DNA from: Elusimicrobiaceae bacterium
Lineage (GTDB): Bacteria; Elusimicrobiota; Elusimicrobia; Elusimicrobiales; Elusimicrobiaceae
DNA length: 64,000 nt
Assembly (NCBI GenBank): GCA_017525025.1
Contig: JAFXUJ010000009.1
Span: forward strand, 51,948-115,947
Direction: 5' to 3'
Shown: piece by piece, positions 2 to 54,600 of the stretch
Numbering within the stretch: the stretch's first letter is position 1
Layout: the number at the start of each line of letters is the position of its first letter
Notes under the pieces: generated by a model
What the model was told of the DNA's origin: nothing
Seen by the model: only the letters and a program-made list of their open reading frames with translations
Database searches by the model: none
Program-made: the position numbers and the translations under genes

Positions 2-373
2 GTATATGTGGGCGGATGTGTAGCCCCGGGGCAAACGGCCGGGAATAAAATGTTTGGAGTAAACCTTTCTCAAACGATTCCTCAGCTATTGGATTTCCAT
101 TTTAACCAAAGCCCTTTGCCTTCCCGCGGTTTGTATTTTAGAGGGTGGCCGGTAGATCGTTTGGAATGGACGGAGTTTCTCAATATCGTACAAGTGTGGC
201 GTGGCGAAACGAAAGTATTTGAAGAAAATTTACAGTATTATCCCGGCCCGTATTCCGATGATCGTTCTGAACTTGCTTTACAAGATTTTGATCTTCAACC
301 CGGCGATATAATCCATTATATTATTCGCGTGAATCATGATAAAACACGTTCCGTGAATTTTATTGTGCCATAA
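2..373 (+). CDS. Hypothetical protein, 5'-partial (frame open from the window edge)
   Basis: Open frame from position 2 to TAA at 373; no recognisable motif. Confidence 0.55.
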   Translation, partial: VYVGGCVAPGQTAGNKMFGVNLSQTIPQLLDFHFNQSPLPSRGLYFRGWPVDRLEWTEFLNIVQVWRGETKVFEENLQYYPGPYSDDRSELALQDFDLQPGDIIHYIIRVNHDKTRSVNFIVP

Positions 374-33707: not shown

Positions 33708-34805
33708 ATGAAAGTTCTACATATTTTAGAGGGATTATTTGCCGGTGGAACGGAGAATGTGGTGATGAATTGGAATCGCCACATGGAGCACCCTTTGTTT
33801 CAGTTTGATTTCTTGGTCAATAATACGCAGCCCATTTATTACGAGGAAGAAATAAAAAAACTGGGGGGGAAAATTCTGGCAGTTCCCCAACGCAAGGCGG
33901 GCATAAAATCCATTTTAAGCTATACGCATGCGGTGTACCGGACTTTGAAGAAAAACCATTATGATGCTGTAGTGTCTCACATGGGGTATATTGCGGGATT
34001 TGAATTGCTAGCCGCCCGGTTGGCGGGAGTACGTAGACGTATTGCGGTAGCACACATGGGGTATTACTATGACACCAACCGAATAAAAATTGGGCTCTAT
34101 AAATTTCTTATTTGGTTATTCGCTACGGATAACTGGGCGGTTTCACAAGCGGCCGGAAAGATGCTGTTTTGGTCCCGGTTTACGGTCATTAAAAACGGTA
34201 TTGATTTAAATAGATTTTCATTTAAAGAGGATACCCGGCGGAAAATACGGGCACAACTCGGTTGGCAAGACGCTTGGATTATCGGAATGGTGGGACGTTT
34301 GGCAGAAGAAAAAAATCATTTATTTTTGTTAAATGTTTTTAAATCTCTCTCAACCGATTTTCCAACGATGCGGTTACTTATTATCGGTTCGGGGCGTTTG
34401 CAAAATATGATTGAGAAACAAATTAAGAACTTGCATCTTGAGGAGAAGGTCAAAATGGCGGGGACTGTTTCTCATGTAGAAGATTTTTACGCTGCCATGG
34501 ATTGCTTGGTCTTGCCTTCTAAGTATGAGGGGGCCCCGTTAACGCCCGTGGAGGCCCAAGCGGAGGGTTTGCCGGTATTGATATCCGAAGCAGTTCCCGG
34601 TGAGGTTAAAATCATTAACACGCAACAATTGCCGCTAGAAGATGCTTCTTTGTGGGAAAAATCGTTGGCAAATCTTTTTCAGGCAGCACCAGAACGCAAC
34701 TTTTCTCACGCACAAGAAGCACTCCGCCAAGCTGGTTTTGACATTTGCGTAGAAGTGAAACGAATTGAGAAATTGTTGCAGGAATTTGAAGATGCAAATA
34801 AATAA
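33708..34805 (+). CDS. Glycosyltransferase family 4 (EpsF-like)
   Basis: GGTE.VVMN, I.NGID...F.F, G.VGRL..EKNH, LVLPS.YEG.P...VEAQA.GLP. Confidence 0.9.
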   Translation: MKVLHILEGLFAGGTENVVMNWNRHMEHPLFQFDFLVNNTQPIYYEEEIKKLGGKILAVPQRKAGIKSILSYTHAVYRTLKKNHYDAVVSHMGYIAGFELLAARLAGVRRRIAVAHMGYYYDTNRIKIGLYKFLIWLFATDNWAVSQAAGKMLFWSRFTVIKNGIDLNRFSFKEDTRRKIRAQLGWQDAWIIGMVGRLAEEKNHLFLLNVFKSLSTDFPTMRLLIIGSGRLQNMIEKQIKNLHLEEKVKMAGTVSHVEDFYAAMDCLVLPSKYEGAPLTPVEAQAEGLPVLISEAVPGEVKIINTQQLPLEDASLWEKSLANLFQAAPERNFSHAQEALRQAGFDICVEVKRIEKLLQEFEDANK

Positions 34806-36030
34806 TAAGCAAAGTAAATTTATCAAAAACACATGCATGCTCTACTTGCTGAGCGCGGCAAAAATGTTGTTTCCGTTTTTGACATTTCCGTACTTGACGC
34901 GGGTATTGTCGGTAGATGGGTATGCGTTACTTGCTTATGTAAAGGCCGCCATGTCGTATATGCAAATGTGGGTAGATTTTGGCTTTATGCTCTCGGCTAC
35001 CAAAGACATTGCCCGAGCGGGACGTAATATCCCGCTGATTAACCAAATTGTTACCAATACCATACTGGCCCGTGTTTTGCTGGGCGTAACGGGAGCAGCG
35101 GCGTTGGCGTTTTTAAGTGCGCTTATTCCTCTTTTAAGGCAGAATTTACTGTTTGTGTGGCTTTCTTACGTGGCGATATTTTTGTCATGTTTTATGACAG
35201 ATTATTTATTCCGCGGAATCGAGCAAATGCACGAAATTACCATTCGTTTCGTAACCATGAAAGGCATTTCTACCGCGCTTACGTTTGTGGTGGTTCACTC
35301 GGATGCGGATTTGTTATATATCCCGATTTTGGATATTGTAAGCTCCGCCGTGGCGCTGATTTTAATTTATTTCCAATTTGGCAAATACAACGTGCGTTTA
35401 ATAAAGCCCTCTCTTAGGCGTGCCTGGGAATATTTAAAAGAGTCGGCGGAATATTTTATGTCCCACGTGGCTACGACGGCATTTGGGGCCCTAAATACGC
35501 TTTTAATCGGCATTTTCTTGCCGGAAGCGGACATTGCCATGTGGTCTGTTGCGTTGCAACTGATTTTGGTTATTCAAATGTGTTACGGACCGATTTTAGA
35601 CGTCATTTATCCTGAAATGATGCTTCACAAAAGCTTGGGGCTTATTAAAAAACTATTCCTCATTTTTATGCCGCTTGTAGGAGCGGGTTGTGTTATTTGC
35701 TACTGGGGCGCCCCTTTGCTGATAACCATAGCCGCGGGAGATAAATATATGGCAGCTGTGCCTATTTTCCGTTTGCTGCTTCCGGTGTTGTTTTTGGGGT
35801 TCCCGGCCATGCTTTGCGGGTGGTCTACCTTGGGAGCGATCGGCAAAATCCGGCAGACGACCTTAACGACGGTCATTTCAGCCTGTACGCAATGTGCCGG
35901 GCTTGGAATTTTGATTTTAGGTGGTATGTTTACCGTGCCGATGGTGGCGGTGGTGCGCGATATAACAGAAAGCGTCTTGCTTGGCACGCGGGTTAGTTTG
36001 GTTATTAAATACCGCAAAGAATTCTCTTAG
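34792..36030 (+). CDS. wzx: Oligosaccharide flippase
   Basis: FPFLTFPYLTRVL, DFGF...AT..IA, DYLFRG.E.M; about 12 TM segments. Confidence 0.88.
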   Translation: MQINNKQSKFIKNTCMLYLLSAAKMLFPFLTFPYLTRVLSVDGYALLAYVKAAMSYMQMWVDFGFMLSATKDIARAGRNIPLINQIVTNTILARVLLGVTGAAALAFLSALIPLLRQNLLFVWLSYVAIFLSCFMTDYLFRGIEQMHEITIRFVTMKGISTALTFVVVHSDADLLYIPILDIVSSAVALILIYFQFGKYNVRLIKPSLRRAWEYLKESAEYFMSHVATTAFGALNTLLIGIFLPEADIAMWSVALQLILVIQMCYGPILDVIYPEMMLHKSLGLIKKLFLIFMPLVGAGCVICYWGAPLLITIAAGDKYMAAVPIFRLLLPVLFLGFPAMLCGWSTLGAIGKIRQTTLTTVISACTQCAGLGILILGGMFTVPMVAVVRDITESVLLGTRVSLVIKYRKEFS

Positions 36031-36039
36031 GAAAATTGT

Positions 36040-36828
36040 ATGGAAATAACGACGGAAACTGTCAAAAAACTTCAACGCATTGAATTGAAAATGCTGGAAA
36101 TTTTTGTTCACATTTGTGAAAAAGAGCATTTACGGTATTATTTGTTGGGGGGCACGTTGTTGGGGGCGGTGCGCCACCGGGGGTTTATTCCGTGGGATGA
36201 CGATGTGGATGTGGGAATGCCACGGGCCGATTACGAACGGTTTTTGAGCTGTGCCTGCGGCTACTTGCCCCACGAATATCTTTTGCAAACGTATAAAACG
36301 GACAAAGATTATCCGTTTCCGTATGCTAAATTGCGTGATACGCGCACGGTTTACCAGGAAAAAGAATTGGTAAATTTAAAAATGAATCACGGGGTGTGGA
36401 TAGATATATTCCCGCTTGATTATATGCCGGCCAATCCTTTTTGGTTTTATATCAAATTTCGCTTTTTTGAGAAACGAACCCGTTGCCGTTTTGTCATCAA
36501 AACCACGCTGAAACAAAAGTTTTATCAACTACTTTCACGCTTCGTTTGCCCGTCTTGGCACCAAGCCGTTAAACGGCTGGACGAATTGATGCATGCCGGG
36601 CGTCAAAATACGGCCTTAACAGCCAATTTCTGCGGCTCTTGGGGGAAAAAAGAAATTACCCCTACGGAATGGTATGGCGAAGGCGCCAGGCTTGAATTTG
36701 AACATCTGAAGGTAAAAGGGCCGATACAATATCATAAGTGGCTTACGCAGGTATACGGCGATTATATGCAATTGCCCCCGGAAGAAAAACGGGGAGTGCG
36801 TCATAACCCGGCGAACGTCAAACTGTAA
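36040..36828 (+). CDS. LicD family phosphotransferase
   Basis: YYL.GGTLLGAVRH.GFIPWDDD.D.GMPR.DY, IDIFPLD, L...YGDYM.LPP. Confidence 0.93.
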   Translation: MEITTETVKKLQRIELKMLEIFVHICEKEHLRYYLLGGTLLGAVRHRGFIPWDDDVDVGMPRADYERFLSCACGYLPHEYLLQTYKTDKDYPFPYAKLRDTRTVYQEKELVNLKMNHGVWIDIFPLDYMPANPFWFYIKFRFFEKRTRCRFVIKTTLKQKFYQLLSRFVCPSWHQAVKRLDELMHAGRQNTALTANFCGSWGKKEITPTEWYGEGARLEFEHLKVKGPIQYHKWLTQVYGDYMQLPPEEKRGVRHNPANVKL

Positions 36829-36837
36829 GGAGTCAAT

Positions 36838-37242
36838 ATGAAACGAGTTATTACCTATGGTACATTTGATTTGCTGCACTACGGACATATTAATTTATTA
36901 AAGCGGGCCAAAGCATTGGGAGATTATTTGATTGTGGCTTTGTCTACCGACGAGTTTAATGCGCTTAAAAATAAAAAATGCTATTTTTCGTACGAGAAGC
37001 GAAAGGCTTTGTTGGAAGCAATCCGATATGTGGATTTGGTTATCGCGGAAACTTCGTGGGAGCAAAAACGTTCGGATATGCATCAGTTTTGTATCAGTAC
37101 TTTTGTGATGGGGGACGATTGGAAAGGAAAATTTGATTTTCTTGAAGAAGAGGGGGTGGAAGTCGTATATTTACCTCGTACCCCGGAAATCAGCACCACG
37201 CGCATCAAGGAAGATTTGGAGTTGCTGAAAAATAAAGAATAA
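36838..37242 (+). CDS. tagD: Glycerol-3-phosphate cytidylyltransferase
   Basis: ITYGTFDLLHYGHINLLKRAK, ALSTDEFN..K.K, WEQK..D, FVMGDDW.GKFDFL, LPRTPEISTT. Confidence 0.95.
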   Translation: MKRVITYGTFDLLHYGHINLLKRAKALGDYLIVALSTDEFNALKNKKCYFSYEKRKALLEAIRYVDLVIAETSWEQKRSDMHQFCISTFVMGDDWKGKFDFLEEEGVEVVYLPRTPEISTTRIKEDLELLKNKE

Positions 37243-37253
37243 AGGAATCTTTT

Positions 37254-38237
37254 ATGTTACAAAATCCTCTGATTTCGGTTATTGTTCCTGTTTATAAAGT
37301 AGAAAAATACTTGTCTTGTTGTCTGGACAGTATTATTGGACAGACGTATTCTAACTTGGAAATTATTTTAGTGGATGACGGATCCCCCGATACTTGTGGC
37401 CAAATTTGTGAGGAATATGCCAGAAAAGATAGTCGTATTCGGGTGATACATCAGGAAAATCAAGGGCTGTCCGGGGCTCGTAACGCCGGATTGCGCGTGG
37501 CCCGGGGCAGTTATATCGGGTTTGTGGACTCCGATGACTATATTGATCCGGATATGTACGAATATCTGTATCAACTGATTTGTAAGGATCAAGCCGATAT
37601 TGCTATGTGTAATATATGTGAAGATAAAGGTTTTCGCTCCGCTCAATCTACGAATGTTCCGTATACGTTGATGAAGTTTGTTGATTTGTTCCAATTGGCA
37701 GATTGGATGTATGTTTGGAACAAGTTGTATAAAAAAGAAATTCTCTCTTCAGTGCAATTTAATACAACCACTTCTTTTGGGGAAGATGAACTGTTTAATT
37801 TTGAAATAGCCAAGCAAGAGCCTACTGTTGCCGTCGGGGGGGAAGCGAAATATCACTATTGTTGCCGTTTCATTGCCGACCGATTAACACGAACGTTCCA
37901 GTCAACGCACTTAAATAAAATTATTTTGGCCGAAGAATGCCTAAAATACGCCCAAGCGCATCATTGGACTGTTTATTGCCGGTACCACCCTGCTCGTGTC
38001 CAATTCAGGCAGGCAAGTAACTTTTTAATACAGTTGGCGCGGACGGCTGATCCCCGGCGGGAGGATGTTTCGTTTTTGACGAATTATTTAAAGCAGCACC
38101 TTGGGCCGTTTTTACAAGCCAAAACCATTACCAAACGTCGTAAAATGTTTGTCCTGGCAGCGTGTGTTAATTTTAATTTGGCCCGCAATATGTTGCGTTT
38201 TGTTGATCATTTAAAAGGGAGTGACGCCGCAAAATAA
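37254..38237 (+). CDS. Glycosyltransferase family 2
   Basis: ISVIVPVYKVEKYL..C.DS, LVDDGSPD, GLSGARN.GL, FVDSDD. Confidence 0.93.
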   Translation: MLQNPLISVIVPVYKVEKYLSCCLDSIIGQTYSNLEIILVDDGSPDTCGQICEEYARKDSRIRVIHQENQGLSGARNAGLRVARGSYIGFVDSDDYIDPDMYEYLYQLICKDQADIAMCNICEDKGFRSAQSTNVPYTLMKFVDLFQLADWMYVWNKLYKKEILSSVQFNTTTSFGEDELFNFEIAKQEPTVAVGGEAKYHYCCRFIADRLTRTFQSTHLNKIILAEECLKYAQAHHWTVYCRYHPARVQFRQASNFLIQLARTADPRREDVSFLTNYLKQHLGPFLQAKTITKRRKMFVLAACVNFNLARNMLRFVDHLKGSDAAK

Positions 38238-38356: not shown

Positions 38357-38386
38357 CAAAAGGCCTATTTGCATATAGGTCTTTTG
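38357..38386 (+). terminator. Probable terminator closing the polysaccharide locus
   Basis: CAAAAGGCCTAT / ATAGGTCTTTTG stem; a second hairpin TCGCAGGAAAT/ATTTCTTGCGA lies at 38272-38305. Confidence 0.6.
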
Positions 38387-38425
38387 ACTCTTGTTTAAGA
38401 CGTCCAGATGCCGTACACTAATAGT

Positions 38426-39571
38426 ATGAGAAAACAGTTGATTTTATTTATTTTAATCTTTGCGTTCGCCGCCGGACCGGCCCGGGCCCAGTGGCAACGG
38501 AGCGGACAAGCTTTGCGGGGGAGTGTGTCTCGCGTTACCTCACTTGCTTCATCCGTGGAAAGGGAAGCCTTACAAACCGCCGGGATAAATGCTTTAACGC
38601 CCACTGTCCCGGCCGGTATATCGCTGGGAAATCCGTTTCTACATGGGATCTTTCAAGCGCGGGAAAATACCATCGGGCCGACAAATCTGTTTTCCGGTAC
38701 GGTATTTCAAACGGAATATAACGGTAGGAAAGAAGTATATATAGCTGTGGCGGCGCATGCTTTAGAATCGGGATCGTATGTGCTTGGCAAAGAGTTTATC
38801 GGGGATGTTTACGTGGGGGATGGGCAATTTAAGCCGGTGCATATGAAAATCGTACAACCTTCCGCGCCGAGTATGCTGGATGTGGCAATTGGAGTGCCGT
38901 TGGAAGGAAGTGAATATTTACGTCCGTTTACCATTAGTAAGAAAAAATTTTCATTGGGGGACGGGGGCATTTCCTATGGGTTTGCCGGGGGAAAAGTAGT
39001 GATTATTCCTCACCGTGATTATGCCTCGCAAACACCGCTTTGTTATCGTACGGCTATGCCTTATCCGCGCGACGATCGTATGGGACTGTGCGGAAGTGCG
39101 CTGCTTAATGAGGAGGGAGAACTGGTGGGTATCCATACGGGTAGTACGCTTAGCGAAATTGAGGAAGAAAAGGATATCGGCCATACGACCAATTCCAAAA
39201 TGTTAAATGTGTTGGTGGACGCTTATCATCATAACGGAGAGGGATTTTTCCCGCTCGTATTGGGTGGACAAAAAGTATTAGATTTGCATGTAACCAGTTA
39301 TATTTCGTTTATTAAGTTGTTTGATTCAAACGGCAAACTGCTGTGGCAACGGGATTTTAAATCTAAATTTGCCTATGACCAAGTAGATCACAAAATAGCC
39401 GTCTTATCTCCGCAATCTATAGAATTTACGGTTCGGCGTGTCCAATGGGATCCGGCCCACCCGGATAAATTGCTTGAAATACGTGGTTCGCGCGATCTTA
39501 CCCGCCGTACCTACCGCTACGATTTCAAAGAGCAGAAAATTGTTTGGGAATCTAGACCAAAAGATAGGTGA
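38426..39571 (+). CDS. Exported chymotrypsin/trypsin-fold peptidase with Cys in place of the catalytic Ser
   Basis: Signal peptide ending ARA-Q; AAH (His 38756), LDVA (Asp 38879), G-L-C-G-S (Cys 39089), VGIH.G (His 39134). Confidence 0.8.
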   Translation: MRKQLILFILIFAFAAGPARAQWQRSGQALRGSVSRVTSLASSVEREALQTAGINALTPTVPAGISLGNPFLHGIFQARENTIGPTNLFSGTVFQTEYNGRKEVYIAVAAHALESGSYVLGKEFIGDVYVGDGQFKPVHMKIVQPSAPSMLDVAIGVPLEGSEYLRPFTISKKKFSLGDGGISYGFAGGKVVIIPHRDYASQTPLCYRTAMPYPRDDRMGLCGSALLNEEGELVGIHTGSTLSEIEEEKDIGHTTNSKMLNVLVDAYHHNGEGFFPLVLGGQKVLDLHVTSYISFIKLFDSNGKLLWQRDFKSKFAYDQVDHKIAVLSPQSIEFTVRRVQWDPAHPDKLLEIRGSRDLTRRTYRYDFKEQKIVWESRPKDR

Positions 39572-39609: not shown

Positions 39610-39640
39610 AAATCCCCCAACCTGAAATTGGGGGATTTAT
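39610..39640. terminator. Bidirectional terminator
   Basis: AAATCCCCCAA / TTGGGGGATTT between convergent genes. Confidence 0.8.
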
Positions 39641-39654
39641 TTATGCTTTACGAA

Positions 39655-40332
39655 CTATTCTACATCAAAGTTAAAATAAGTATCTTTGTACGGCTCATCT
39701 TTTAAAGTAAAGTGCCACCACTCGGAATCAATCCCTTGGAAACCGGCTCTTTCCATCGCGTTGCGTAAAATTTCCCGGTTCTTTTTTTGTTTTTTGGATA
39801 TCTTTTTATAATTGGGGTGGGAAATTTCGGAAAATAAATCAAAGGTTCCTCCCATATCCACAAAAGAACCGTCTTTTTTAATGAGTGTTAAATCTACGGT
39901 GCTTCCCCGCGTATGGCCGGATTTGGCCATAATGTAATTACCGGCGAGTAAGTTGGATTTTTCAAGCGTGGGGTAGAAAGTTTTATCGCCGGGATCGTTG
40001 GGATTATTGATCCACGCTACAAAATCATCTACGGCTTTTTGAGGGCGGTAGGTGTCCCATATAAGTAAGCGGTATCCTTGCCGGCGCAAATCTTCGGCGG
40101 CTTTGGCCAGTGCGCTCAACGCTTTTTTGGTCATATAAGCTTTGGGGGCCTTGTAACCGGCGATGCGGTGCCCCGTGAAATTGTACGAAGAATAATAGCG
40201 GATATCATACACGGCGTCATCAATCACGGTGCTGATTTCGGCAAAATCACTTTTATCGCTGGAAAGGGTATCTGCCCAAACGGGGATGAAACAACTGGCC
40301 AGTACTATATATGCAACAATTATTTTTTTCAT
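39655..40332 (-). CDS. D-alanyl-D-alanine dipeptidase (VanX/DdpX, M15D) with signal peptide
   Basis: DIRYYS..NFTG, WDTYRPQ.AV, SGHTRGSTVDLT, DMG..FD.F, EWWHF. Confidence 0.92.
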   Translation of the reverse strand: MKKIIVAYIVLASCFIPVWADTLSSDKSDFAEISTVIDDAVYDIRYYSSYNFTGHRIAGYKAPKAYMTKKALSALAKAAEDLRRQGYRLLIWDTYRPQKAVDDFVAWINNPNDPGDKTFYPTLEKSNLLAGNYIMAKSGHTRGSTVDLTLIKKDGSFVDMGGTFDLFSEISHPNYKKISKKQKKNREILRNAMERAGFQGIDSEWWHFTLKDEPYKDTYFNFDVE

Positions 40333-42170: not shown

Positions 42171-42500
42171 CTATTTTAAATTTTTCAGCGCATTTGGGTT
42201 GTGTTTGTGTATTTCCGCCACGGTTGGGCAGGTCGTCAATTGTTCGCATTGTCCGCATGTTTCAACGCCTTTGCGTTGGGCGCATTGGCGGACTTTGCAC
42301 AGGTGGTTGCAAAAAAATGTTTTTATGCCTTTTGTACGGCAACCGGTGCAATTGATCATTTCCGGGGTGATGACGGTGTTATTTAACCGGCTCCATAACT
42401 CGGCGGTTTTCTTTCTTAACGCATTGTCATTATGCAGGGTGGCTCGGTAAGCATCACACGATTCGCAATCTAATCCGCAATAAGCAATTAAGTGTTTCAT
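42171..42500 (-). CDS. DUF3795 family Cys-rich protein
   Basis: [26 protein letters not shown].....C. Confidence 0.85.
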
Positions 42501-43012
42501 ACGGGCTTTTCCAATAATGTCTCATAAATCTTTTTATCTTCCGCACCGAAGCAAACAAAGATAATCTCCTTCACAGTTTTAAGGGATATCTGTTTTACCG
42601 CACGGAGCGCAATTTGCGCCGCTTGCTCCTTAGGGAAGCGGTATACTCCCGTGGAAATACACGGAAACGCCACCGTTTTGCACGCGTGTTCTTCTGCTAA
42701 TTTAAGGGAATTTACATAGCAATTTTTTAAAAGCTCTTTTTCATTATGTGTACCGCCATACCACACAGGGCCTACTGTGTGAATCACGTATGTGCAAGGC
42801 AGGCGGTAAGCGGCCGTTATTTTAGCTTCTCCCGTTTGACAGCCTCCCAACGTGCGGCATTCTGCAAGTAACTCCGGCCCGGCGGCGCGGTGGATGGCTC
42901 CGTCCACGCCTCCGCCGCCCAAAAGCGTGTGATTGGCGGCGTTTACGATAGCGTCTACGTTGAGTCTTGTGATATCGCCTTGTATAATAGTTAATTGGGG
43001 CATGGGTATCAT
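42497..43012 (-). CDS. Macro domain O-acetyl-ADP-ribose deacetylase (YmdB-like)
   Basis: [47 protein letters not shown]. Confidence 0.94.
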
Positions 43013-44265
43013 TAAAGCCGGCCTTTAAATTCAAAGCCCAACGCCTCTACCGCCGATTTGATTTCTTCGTCGGTCGGGTTTCCTTTGACACAGGCAATGC
43101 CTTCACTTAAATTGACGGTTACTTCTTTTACGGATTTGAGATTGCTTATGGCCCGGGTGGCATTGTTTTTGCAGTTATTGCAGCGCATGCCGTTGATTTT
43201 AAAAGAGATGGTTTCTTTATTATTATTTCTGCTTGAAGCCGGCTCTTTTTCGTGTTTTTTAAATAATATAACATTGGCAAAAAGAGCAAGCAAGATACAG
43301 GAACAGACTATTTTGAAATATCCAAAATGGCCGCCGTGGTGCGTGGCAGTGGCGAAGTTGGATACGTCAAACCAACCTGCAGGTAAAAAATTGTCTATAA
43401 TCAGCCCGGCCGATATAGCGCCGATTACCAAGGTGGCCAAATAAAGCGCAAATGTTTTTTTACCCAATACTTTTCCTATGACTAACATGGAAGCGATATT
43501 GGCAGCCGGACCCGCCATCAGTAAAACAAGAGCCGTTCCCGGGCTCATGCCTTTCATCATAAGGGCAATGGCTATAGGGATAGAGCCCGTCGCGCATACG
43601 TACATAGGTATGGCCACTAATAAAACGAGCATCATAGTCAAAAGGGTGTTATTGCCAAACATTGTAAAGAAATTATCCGGTACAAAATAGGCAATTAAGC
43701 CGGCAATCAGTAAACCCAGTAAGAGCATTTTACCGATGTCTTCCATCATCTCCACATAACCGTACTGAAACACTCCTTTTAATTTTTGCACAAAAGAAAG
43801 ATTTTGTTCCGGTTTGTTTTCTGCGTGCCGGGATTTCGTAGAGGGGGTATCTTTTGAAGTAAAAAAGTTGGTTACCAGGCCGGCAAACAGAGCCGTAAGT
43901 AAGGCCACTATCGGGCGGATAACCGCAAACGGCAAGCCCAGTAAGGAATACGTAGCAATAATAGAATCCACACCCGTTTGGGGGGTGGCTATCAAAAAAG
44001 AAATAACGGAACCTTTGGAAGCGCCCTCTTTGTATAGAGCCATGGCTGTGGGAATTACTCCGCAAGAGCACAGCGGTAAGGGAATACCAAATAGCGTGGC
44101 GTAAAAGACCGACAGCCAATTGTTTTTTGATAAATATTTGGAAAATAAGTGTTGCGGTACTAATACGTGCAAAATGCCGGCGAATAAAAAACCCAGTAAT
44201 AAGTAGGGCGACATGACATTAAATATGGCAAAAACAGTAAGAGCTATTTCCTTTATAATATCCAC
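43012..44265 (-). CDS. Permease (DUF318/SO_0444-like) with C-terminal HMA domain; putative heavy-metal efflux
   Basis: [32 protein letters not shown]-terminal GMRCNNC HMA motif. Confidence 0.88.
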
Positions 44266-51612: not shown

Positions 51613-54600
51613 ATGCGTAAAGATTTTAAACAAATTATAAGCGAAGTGAAAAGGTTATTAGCCCTACTGATAACTGTCCAAATGATTTGTTGGCACAGTG
51701 TGAATATTGCGTGGGGTGCGGAATATGATTCGCTTATAGATGCAATACAAGCAACAACTACCCCGCGGACATATACACTTGATGGAAATGAAACCTCTTC
51801 AACTGCCCTGGGAAATATCGGAGGATGGAATTCTGTTCTTACCATAGATGGCGGAGAGGGGCATTACGGAATAAATAATACTTCAACGGCAACCGATACA
51901 AGACTTTTCGTAGGCAAAAACCAGACGTTTTACTTGCAGAATCTTGGAACTTATACCACAACTACTTCCAGCTCCATTGTTGAAGGAGTGGATATCATTA
52001 CGGAAGTTACCGTAGGAAATTCCATAAATAATTTTGGAAAAACGAGTGACAGAGTGGGATTTCTCAGATCTGCGGGAACTTCACACATTTCTAATTCTGT
52101 CTTTTATAATAACCGCGGTAGATATGGTGTAGTACAAAATAGAGAACAAGGAACCATGTCCATAACAGGTTCTGTTTTTGCTAATAACAATGTGCCACAG
52201 GGTGCTGTTCATAACGATGGCACAAATAGAATGACTGAAATATCGGATTCTATATTTTATAATAATACCGCCGTCACCCAGACTTCCGGGGATACCGACT
52301 TGCGAAATCGCAGCGCCAGTGCTATTTTTAATAAACCAGATAGGACGATAGACATCATATCCGGTTCTCAATTTATCGGTAATACTACCATCTCTACTGC
52401 CGATGGCCAGCAAACCGGAACAATATATAATAATGGCGGAACAATTGGCGAAATATCAAATTCTGTATTTTATAATAATAGTAATCAAAGCGGATCTGTC
52501 ATACATAATGTAAGCAGCACTACAGCCGCAGGTGTATTAAACAACGGTACAATAACAACGATATCCAATTCAGTATTTGTTCAAAATACTTCTGTAGGAT
52601 CCGGTGCCGCAATATCCAATACAAGTGATTCAATCATAGGAGCCATAACCGATTCTCTCTTTATTTCTAATACCGCGACAGCCAACGGCGGTGCAATTTA
52701 TAATGAAGGTGATATTGCTGCATTAGCAGGTACTTTTACATCTAACAGTGCCGACTCGAACGGCGGTGCAATTTATAATACCGGAACGGTAACAATCACA
52801 TCATCCGATGGTGCTAATACAACCTTCACCGGTAATACGGCAAACGGAGTTTCAAATGCTTTGTATAATACCGGAACTGTGAATATGAATGCCGGGACGG
52901 ATAGTTCAATTATTTTTAATGATAAAATAACAGGTTCCGACGGTGTAATTACTCTTGGTGGGGCGGGTGTAGTTGAATTTAACGAAACCGTAGCGGGAAA
53001 TGGCGTTACATTAAATTCGGGCACACTCAAATTAGGCTTGGCGGACAGTTTGCAAGATGCCACGAGCTTTACTGTAAACGGCGGAACATTAGATTTGCGT
53101 AACAACGAAGTCCATACTTATCAATTGGGCCAAAGCACCTCCATCGGCGGTACAGTGGGATTGGCCATAGATGCTGATTTGGCCGGTGCAACTCCGGTAG
53201 CTGATATGATTACAGCGGCCGGTGAAGTTACCGGTTCGGGCAGTTTTGTTTTTTCAGCAGCTAATATCAATGTCATGAGTTATGCCGATGAACAAACTCC
53301 TTTTTGGGTACAGGTAACGGATGAGAATTTACGAAATTATGCCGGCTTAGGTTCAAATGCCAATATACATATAACAGATAACGAACCGGAAGGTTACTTT
53401 ATAACCTATGAAACATCACACGATGGTGTAGACGCCGGTTTCCTTAGATTTGAACATGATACATTAGCTAATGCGATAGCGTCGTCCGTTGAAGAAAAAG
53501 CCTATACCATGGGAACGGATGAGACCTTAATCAATACTCCGGCGCTAGGTGGTGATTCGCTAACTGTAAACGGAAACAGCCAAGGTCATTCAATAACAGG
53601 TAATGGCGGTGCAGGGTTAGCGGTCGGTAATGGTCAAACCTTATCGTTAAATAATATAGGTGTAGATAGTGAAGGCAATGTAACCGGAGCCGGACTTAAC
53701 AATTTTAATACTGCCGTATCAAATGATGCAAACGGAACCGCCAATATCTATCATGCGACGTTTAGTAATAATACTACGGATATTGATAATAATGGCGTAG
53801 CCAATATGTCCGGAACCGTTATATTTGATAATGCCCAAGGAGACGGTACCTTAAATATAGCAAAAGATAGCGACGGAAATTCCTCTGCCGTAACGGTGAA
53901 TAATAGTTTAGAACAAAACAACATCAATGTAGAAAGCGCAAATACGTTGACCAATGATAACGCGACCATTACCGTGAACGCTGCCTTGGATAACGCCGGA
54001 ACGATAGCCGGTACCGGGACGAGTGTGCTTGTAATCAATGGGAATTCCGGCAATAGCGGTACGATTGACCAAGGAATATTGGTAACCGCCGCGAGCGCCA
54101 CATTAACCAATACTGGCGCCCTCACCGTGCAAACTACATTAACAAACAGTGGGACGATTGCAAATAATAACGATTTAACGTTAGCGGGTAGTGATATAAC
54201 TAATGCCGGAACGGTAAACGGCACCGGAACGACTTATGTCACAGGCAATGTAACCAATAAAGGAACCATTTCTCAGAACGGAATACAAATATCTAGCGGT
54301 CAAACGTTAACCAATGATAGTGGCGCTACTATTACTACAACGGATACAGCTGCCGATGCGGGATTCCAAAACAACGGAACCGTATTAAATGATGGCGCTA
54401 TTTCGGTTGCCGGCGGTAGCAATGCGGGCTCCATTACCGGAAACGGTACATTTGCAAACAGCGGAGATTTCACAAATAGTGATTATATTGAGCAGGATAC
54501 TGTTACTAATAGCGGAACAATTACTACCGATTCAGAGAATTTAGTAGCTGCGAACGGAATTACCAATAACGGTACTTTGGTATATAATGCCGGAAGTCAA

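Follow-up and report, generated by a model that had tools for sequence, protein, structure and literature searches.

The gene studied here lies in a 64,000-nucleotide stretch of DNA from an Elusimicrobiaceae bacterium (contig JAFXUJ010000009.1, C9 below, positions 51948–115947), referred to as the window, which belongs to a 99% complete genome of 1.55 Mb in 17 contigs. It encodes P0001, a protein with the predicted catalytic triad of a trypsin-fold protease in which the nucleophile is a cysteine (Cys222). Judged by its sequence, P0001 is a cellular cysteine version of the bacterial trypsin-fold proteases that is unannotated in public records. A sequence-only reading of the window had proposed a secreted, viral 3C-like cysteine protease at this place; the open reading frame, the signal peptide, the His, Asp and Cys codons, the spacings of 41 (His111–Asp152) and 70 residues (Asp152–Cys222), and the segment LLNEEGELVGIHTGS that follows the nucleophile motif were all confirmed.

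The features of the gene are collected in Table 1. An in-frame alternative ATG at 38408 would add six residues to P0001; the evidence favors the start at 38426, because the homolog N-termini sit at the MRK/MKK position. The N-terminus, MRKQLILFILIFAFAAGPARA followed after the predicted cleavage point by QW, displays the n/h/c pattern of a Sec-type signal peptide, and the A-Q pair ends the hydrophobic stretch across the homologs. The linker behind it varies widely among homologs in both length and sequence, some of them having a longer version with coiled-coil-like inserts. Along the protein the putative catalytic residues come in the order His111, Asp152, Cys222, which is the order of clan PA, and the AVAAHAL motif around the histidine resembles the TAAHC of S1 enzymes. 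The codons gga ctg tgc gga agt encode the G-L-C-G-S sequence around the nucleophile.

Table 1. Features of the P0001 gene and its surroundings, in window coordinates; member counts refer to the filled cells of the 182-sequence alignment described in the text.
Feature	Position	Strand	Details
Coding sequence of the Cys-nucleophile trypsin-fold protease (P0001)	38426..39571	+	381 aa + stop
Predicted Sec-type signal peptide, residues 1–21, cleavage between ARA and Q	38426..38488	+	Sequence pattern; A-Q kept in ≥70% of homologs
Variable disordered linker or possible pro-region, residues 22–65	38489..38620	+	pLDDT <50 for residues 12–53
Chymotrypsin-fold (clan PA) protease domain, residues ~66–269	38621..39232	+	AF2 pLDDT mostly >90; Foldseek HtrA/DegS; profile Deg8 and V8
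His111, motif AVAAHAL, predicted general base	38756..38758	+	168/171 members; start of a short helix after a strand
Asp152, motif MLDVAIGV, predicted third triad member	38879..38881	+	171/173 members; aligns with V8 Asp93
Arg218, candidate S1 or active-site wall residue, 4 residues before the nucleophile	39077..39079	+	161/179 members (90%); putative role
G220-L-C222-G223, predicted nucleophile and oxyanion-hole motif	39083..39094	+	Cys222 = TGC 39089–39091
His237 of GIHTGS, predicted S1 specificity histidine, +15 from the nucleophile	39134..39136	+	161/181 members; aligns with V8 His184
C-terminal beta-rich domain, residues 270–381 (112 aa)	39233..39568	+	AF2 pLDDT 90.4; shared by almost every full-length member aligned
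Terminator-like hairpin between the upstream glycosyltransferase operon and the protease gene	38357..38386	+	Consensus scan only
Terminator-like hairpin between the protease gene and the convergent M15 dipeptidase gene	39610..39638	+	Consensus scan only
3' end (123 aa) of a distant paralog	2..373	+	Full gene C9:51160-52320; GYCGS just upstream of the window start

A word-indexed search returned 39 homologs. Those with a named source all belong to Elusimicrobiaceae or Candidatus Avelusimicrobium, and their public labels read "hypothetical protein" or, in one case, "serine protease". In the alignment of these homologs H111, D152, G220, C222, G223, G235, H237, T238, G239 and S240 are invariant. 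An exhaustive HMMER scan of 1.84 billion cluster representatives (50% identity) yielded 218 proteins at E ≤ 1e-3, 86 of them at E ≤ 1e-30. Column counts were taken from 182 aligned sequences with at most 50% mutual identity, comprising the best 150 of the 218 HMMER matches and the earlier matches. The nucleophile column contained Cys in 178 of 180 filled cells, with one Trp, one Glu (in a fragment) and no Ser. Gly220 (179/179) and Gly223 (180/180) are invariant in this alignment, and His111 and Asp152 are nearly so (Table 1). Two more distant subfamilies, one with the motif GACGGP and the other with AGHV and a later G-x-C-G-S/A-P, carry a Cys nucleophile in all 34 of their members taken together. 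The cysteine is thus constant across three subfamilies, and homologs do not carry Ser. Since it is conserved in homologs, paralogs and all three subfamilies, a sequencing error or a strain-specific TGC is ruled out.

The few departures from the triad are informative as well. P0128 combines His to Gln with Cys to Trp, P0055 combines His to Arg with Asp to Gly, and the fragment P0174, which groups with these degenerate members, has Glu for Cys; by their sequences the three are likely pseudoproteases within the expansion. The rare sequences without Cys or His also have a second key site altered, a pattern that a functional triad in the other members would lead one to expect. Together with the co-conservation of His, Asp, Cys and Gly, it lends support to the earlier proposal of an active cysteine protease over a dead enzyme, with activity as a prediction.

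The Cys222 column is the only conserved cysteine position outside the signal peptide, and 99 of 172 mature regions contain exactly one cysteine. Searches for DsbA, DsbB and VKOR returned nothing in the 99% complete genome, and the same searches found them in control genomes. A structural disulfide at Cys222 was ruled out, as there is neither a second conserved Cys column nor DsbA, DsbB or VKOR. The envelope of the organism is apparently without oxidative folding machinery, and therefore the exported Cys222 should stay reduced, as a free thiol.

The AlphaFold2 (AF2) model of P0001, built from the 39-sequence alignment, had a mean predicted local distance difference test score (pLDDT) of 87.1 and a predicted template modeling score of 0.82, residues 1–53 being the only disordered part. 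A Foldseek search against the PDB placed DegP, Deg8, DegS, DegQ and AlgW first (E ~4e-9, probability 1.0); the probability was 1.0 for more than 400 chains of the HtrA/DegS type, and the template modeling (TM) score on the DegS protease domain was 0.75. As modeled, the fold of P0001 is a chymotrypsin-type double beta-barrel of clan PA, in agreement with the fold that had been read from the letters. Among predicted viral structures, the top Foldseek matches were HtrA-like proteins of giant viruses and phages, followed by picornaviral, potyviral, sobemo-like and astroviral proteases with similar scores, which therefore reflect the general chymotrypsin fold and no special closeness to 3C.

Profile comparisons told the same story. 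The family profile, searched against PDB sequences, matched Deg8 (E 3.4e-6), V8 glutamyl endopeptidase (E 8e-6), the Spl proteases (E ~1e-3), arterivirus nsp4 (E ~1e-2) and a 3C-like protease (E 0.12). The alignment with V8 set LD(152)VALVKF of the family on GD(93)LAIVKF, G-L-C(222)-G-S on G-N-S(169)-G-S and G-I-H(237) on G-I-H(184), so that Asp152 and Cys222 fall on the catalytic Asp93 and Ser169 of V8. The family hidden Markov model also aligned Asp152 and Cys222 with the Asp and Ser of the genome's own Ser-type Trypsin_2 protein, and hhalign runs against single Ser-type sequences aligned the nucleophile block alone. P0001 itself gave no match to Pfam Trypsin_2 (PF13365, gathering threshold 27.6 bits) at E ≤ 10 and none in NCBIfam, its sole Pfam trace being a sub-threshold local match to arterivirus S32; Trypsin_2 was matched by 33 of the 39 homologs at E ≤ 0.01 (best 3.9e-9), and four paralogs of the same genome pass its cut-off. 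Peptidase_C3 (PF00548, cut-off 22 bits) was matched neither by P0001 nor by any of the 39 homologs. The only sequence to reach its threshold was the second domain of P0042 (763 aa, from a relative of Ca. Avelusimicrobium luingense), with 24.2 bits and no single stretch passing; this protein has two Cys-protease domains, with GLCGS and GSCGG, and the second carries Gln in place of the S1 histidine.

By sequence, the family belongs to the bacterial Trypsin_2 (S1B/S1C-like) radiation as a divergent branch whose Ser has given way to Cys. The "3C-like" label of the sequence-only reading consequently holds for the predicted chemistry and for the G-x-C-G and G-x-H motifs, and fails as a statement of relationship to family C3. 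Because the nearest relatives by both sequence and fold are bacterial Trypsin_2, HtrA and V8 enzymes, the Ser-to-Cys switch was most likely independent of viruses. A profile built from the remotest members gave further Cys members only and no Ser-bearing sister group. The nearest Ser protein found was the genome's own Trypsin_2 protein, at 27 bits, and a tree with this protein as its only Ser row cannot separate one Ser-to-Cys switch from two. PHROG and PADLOC gave no matches; with these results, a normal guanine-plus-cytosine (GC) content and bacterial enzymes as the nearest relatives, a viral or phage origin and a role as a defense-system component were rejected.

The C-terminal extension noticed in the first reading, 110–130 aa long, proved to be a confidently folded domain: modeled alone, it is beta-rich with a pLDDT of 90.4. 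In the 39-homolog alignment P276, W341 and Y365-D366 of this domain are conserved, and the domain accompanies the protease domain throughout the family. Foldseek found no match in the PDB for the isolated model (best E 0.15, TM <0.3), Pfam gave no match for the domain, and no PDZ match was obtained in P0001 or the 39 homologs. The S1C-NTF2 protein RsgI9 (7sjy) was present in the whole-protein Foldseek list; since the isolated domain matched nothing, its identification as PDZ or NTF2 was rejected. On the evidence of the model, the domain may represent a new fold. Its position mirrors that of the PDZ domains in HtrA, and by this analogy it probably has a substrate-binding or gating role.

The genome carries 12 proteins of this superfamily with G-x-C-G-S/G, compared with three trypsin-fold proteins with Ser. 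The 12 Cys paralogs comprise the window copy, a tandem array of five (C9:1052-7058), two each on contigs C14 and C15, one on C2, and one that overlaps the window start. The last of these (C9:51160-52320) is very divergent, with the motifs GYCGS, AYHV and ADISIAEL, a Tyr in place of the S1 histidine and a C-terminal domain of its own. Across the 12 paralogs the S1 histidine position is occupied by His in six, Tyr in four and Phe in two, and in the aligned family it is likewise replaced by Tyr, Phe or Ile in some members; this variation suggests that the paralogs have diversified in specificity. All 12 have TGC or TGT as their nucleophile codon, and the three Ser-type proteins use AGC, TCC and AGC, codons that are single-step neighbors of TGY.

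The five-gene array (+ strand) adjoins a convergent cluster for N-acetylglucosamine (GlcNAc) on the other strand (C9:7060-12949), containing nagA, nagB and the phosphotransferase system (PTS) genes EIIC/EIIB/EIIA-HPr-EI. In Ca. Avelusimicrobium caledoniensis an array of seven genes occupies the same place beside nagA-nagB-PTS, and the window gene is the ortholog of its sixth member (100/100 support); the window copy thus represents an array member that has dispersed. The location next to GlcNAc catabolism is a weak hint at the use of amino sugars or glycoproteins.

Across the phylum (301 genomes), the protease family occurs almost exclusively in the genus of the window (47 genomes); weaker matches came from two further genera of Elusimicrobiaceae and from one additional taxonomic family. 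Within Elusimicrobiaceae, 78 of 145 genomes encode it, with up to at least 13 copies each. The protease module also occurs in the C-terminal part of giant proteins, namely P0043 (3374 aa), P0148 (1695 aa, a named member from Elusimicrobium simillimum, in which the module begins at about residue 1190) and a third at G066:C1:981866-982621 (an open reading frame of 1371 aa). The remainder of P0043 and P0148 had no Pfam match. Giant proteins of the P0043 type may be surface proteins with a built-in protease.

Taken together, the conservation pattern and the structural model argue for P0001 as an active, Sec-exported His111-Asp152-Cys222 endopeptidase, a reading to which we assign a probability of roughly two in three. 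After removal of the signal peptide behind ARA, a disordered linker of ~45 residues would precede the double-beta-barrel domain, in which the single thiol, that of Cys222, would be activated by His111, itself oriented by Asp152. The oxyanion hole would be built from backbone NH groups in G-x-C-G, those of Gly220 and Cys222, and catalysis would proceed via a thioacyl-enzyme, as in viral proteases of the 3C and tobacco etch virus (TEV) type. The S1 pocket would contain His237, placed as V8 His184 and analogous to the histidine of the 3C G-x-H motif, and Arg218 may also line it. The presence of this V8/3C-type histidine suggests a preference for Glu or Gln at P1, and another polar or acidic residue could be accepted as well. 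The C-terminal beta domain, in the place of the PDZ domain of HtrA, would bind or gate substrates. Together, the 12 paralogs would make up a set of exported proteases that differ in specificity, probably used for protein or glycoprotein foraging, or for the processing of envelope and host proteins, in the anoxic gut. A thiol enzyme could be viable outside the cytoplasm because the organism lacks disulfide-forming machinery.

Several points weigh against this interpretation. The assignment of His111 comes from its motif, its 98% conservation and its secondary-structure position, and the residue lies outside the residue-level alignments to solved enzymes. The predicted Sec signal would indicate export to the periplasm, with no further secretion implied. 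Thr occupies position −5 relative to the nucleophile in V8 and 3C, and this position varies in the family, which leaves His237 as the sole residue behind the Glu/Gln assignment. Serine proteases engineered to carry Cys in place of Ser usually have severely impaired amidase activity. The reverse swap, Cys to Ser, costs TEV protease 10^4-fold in activity (PMC4576821). Activity of P0001 would thus depend on a co-adaptation that is invisible in the sequence. Self-cleavage in the style of 3C, between Q and A of an I-F-Q-A segment ahead of the protease domain, was rejected: Q77 is present in 46% of sequences (Arg in 21%), with F76 and A78 at 79%, and the AF2 model confidently builds the segment as a beta-strand within the fold.

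An active Cys triad could also belong to a housekeeping envelope enzyme of the HtrA/DegS type, engaged in periplasmic quality control or regulated proteolysis and sensing through its C-terminal domain. The closest structures are indeed HtrA, DegP and DegS, a protease followed by a C-terminal accessory domain is their layout too, and P0001 has a Sec signal only, with no recognizable secretion or sorting motif. We nevertheless consider such a role unlikely, given that 12 divergent paralogs, tandem arrays and a diversified S1 site are atypical of it, that neither Pfam nor Foldseek detected a PDZ domain, and that several species of the same genus do without the family, which is thus not essential. 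It is improbable that P0001 is a catalytically dead pseudoprotease whose trypsin fold serves as a binding module, with the cysteine kept for redox sensing or metal binding. Expanded protease families often contain pseudoproteases, and clearly degenerate members exist in this one, as described above; however, His, Asp, Cys and the two oxyanion glycines are kept together in ~98% of ~180 sequences, which a binding module would not need, and the 172 mature regions contain no conserved second Cys and no His cluster for a metal site.

The thioacyl-enzyme might instead serve mainly for acyl transfer, as a transpeptidase or ligase or as a single-turnover self-processing module, for example in attaching or releasing surface proteins. 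When serine proteases are engineered to carry a thiol, aminolysis is favored over hydrolysis, and a processing role is plausible for the modules at the C-terminal ends of the giant proteins. Yet most members are stand-alone proteins of ~400 aa with their own signal peptide, the arrays have no conserved gene for a partner or substrate next to them, and the candidate self-cleavage sequence F-Q-A is poorly kept at its Q, all of which makes acyl transfer an improbable main function. The motifs G-x-C-G and G-x-H, the weak Pfam matches to arterivirus S32, the P0042 domain above the Peptidase_C3 threshold and the picornaviral polyproteins among the viral Foldseek matches are what would be seen in a true homolog of viral 3C or 3C-like proteases, exchanged between an RNA virus and a bacterium. 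To this exchange we give hardly any credence: the profile E-values favor Deg8 and V8 over nsp4 and the 3C-like protease by orders of magnitude, Trypsin_2 is matched by 33 of 39 homologs and Peptidase_C3 by none, the best viral structural matches are themselves HtrA-like proteins of giant viruses and phages, and the gene shows no PHROG match and a GC content typical of the surrounding genome.

The immediate neighbors of the window gene are functionally unrelated to it. Directly upstream, a polysaccharide-decoration operon on the same strand (34765–38237) encodes a Polysacc_synt flippase, LicD, a small cytidylyltransferase and a GT2 glycosyltransferase, which suggests a phosphocholine- or phospho-alcohol-type modification of a surface glycan. 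Downstream, the convergent gene at 39655–40332 (− strand) encodes a D-Ala-D-Ala dipeptidase of the M15 (VanX) type, whose hydrophobic N-terminus resembles a signal sequence; export would be unusual for a VanX-like enzyme. This gene is followed by genes for an outer membrane protein and an alpha/beta hydrolase, and at 42497–44265 (− strand) by a Macro-domain protein and, at once, an ArsP-type permease fused to a heavy-metal-associated (HMA) domain.

Brenner reportedly proposed in 1988 a Cys intermediate linking the two serine codon classes (TCN and AGY) of trypsin-like enzymes, and the nucleophile codons within this single genome cover TGY-Cys, AGY-Ser and TCN-Ser. To our knowledge, the MEROPS subclan PA(C) consists of viral families only, and we know of no large cellular family of clan PA cysteine endopeptidases that has been described as such. 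A literature search found no described cellular PA-clan cysteine protease and no relevant protease from Elusimicrobia. We are inclined, with some reserve, to regard the family as the first large one of this kind: a Ser-to-Cys switch in bacteria, independent of RNA viruses, that then became the dominant trypsin-fold type of gut Elusimicrobiaceae (12 Cys versus 3 Ser proteins in one genome), with a C-terminal fold unseen in the PDB, and a living example of Brenner's intermediate.

Cellular proteases of clan PA are stated to use serine, with cysteine found in viral families only (PMC4576821), and no peptidase family is said to mix catalytic types (PMC3207474). A conserved and heavily duplicated bacterial Cys family would contradict the former statement. 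If the interpretation holds, nucleophile switching occurs and persists in cells, which bears on the origin of viral 3C-type proteases from HtrA-like ancestors and on Brenner's serine-codon puzzle. In public records these proteins carry the label "hypothetical" or, mistakenly, "serine protease", and gut-microbiome protease assays based on serine-protease inhibitors could miss such enzymes. For enzymology, the family offers candidate sequence-specific, TEV-like cysteine proteases or ligases, and for physiology, the combination of no Dsb proteins and exported enzymes with one Cys points to a reason why thiol catalysis outside the cytoplasm is affordable for anaerobes.

Among known systems, the family stands closest to HtrA, DegP, DegS and Deg8 (S1C) and to V8 and the Spl proteases (S1B), with which it shares its fold, its best profile matches, the Asp block xLDxAxxK and the G-x-X-G-S-P/A pattern. 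With HtrA it also has in common export and an accessory domain after the protease, a beta domain in the P0001 family and PDZ in HtrA. With V8 it shares the S1 histidine in G-I-H, exactly 15 residues after the nucleophile in both. It differs from S1B and S1C in that the nucleophile is Cys and not Ser in every active-looking member, in its 12 copies in a 1.55-Mb genome, and in the position of P0001 below every Pfam and NCBIfam threshold. P0001 thus has neither the serine nucleophile nor the one or two C-terminal PDZ domains of S1C, and G-L-C-G-S stands where S1B has G-x-S-G-S.

Unlike the viral PA(C) enzymes, P0001 is the product of a chromosomal, stand-alone gene with a signal peptide and many paralogs, and is not part of a polyprotein; it has no significant sequence relation to them beyond the local motif and no match to the C3 family model. 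Domain III of coronavirus Mpro is helical, and the C-terminal domain of P0001, being beta-rich, is unrelated to it. What P0001 does share with picornain 3C (C3), NIa/TEV protease (C4) and the calicivirus and coronavirus 3C-like proteases (C37, C30) is the chymotrypsin fold, the predicted Cys-His-acid triad and G-x-C-G, and with 3C also the downstream G-x-H histidine, which in 3C selects Gln or Glu at P1.

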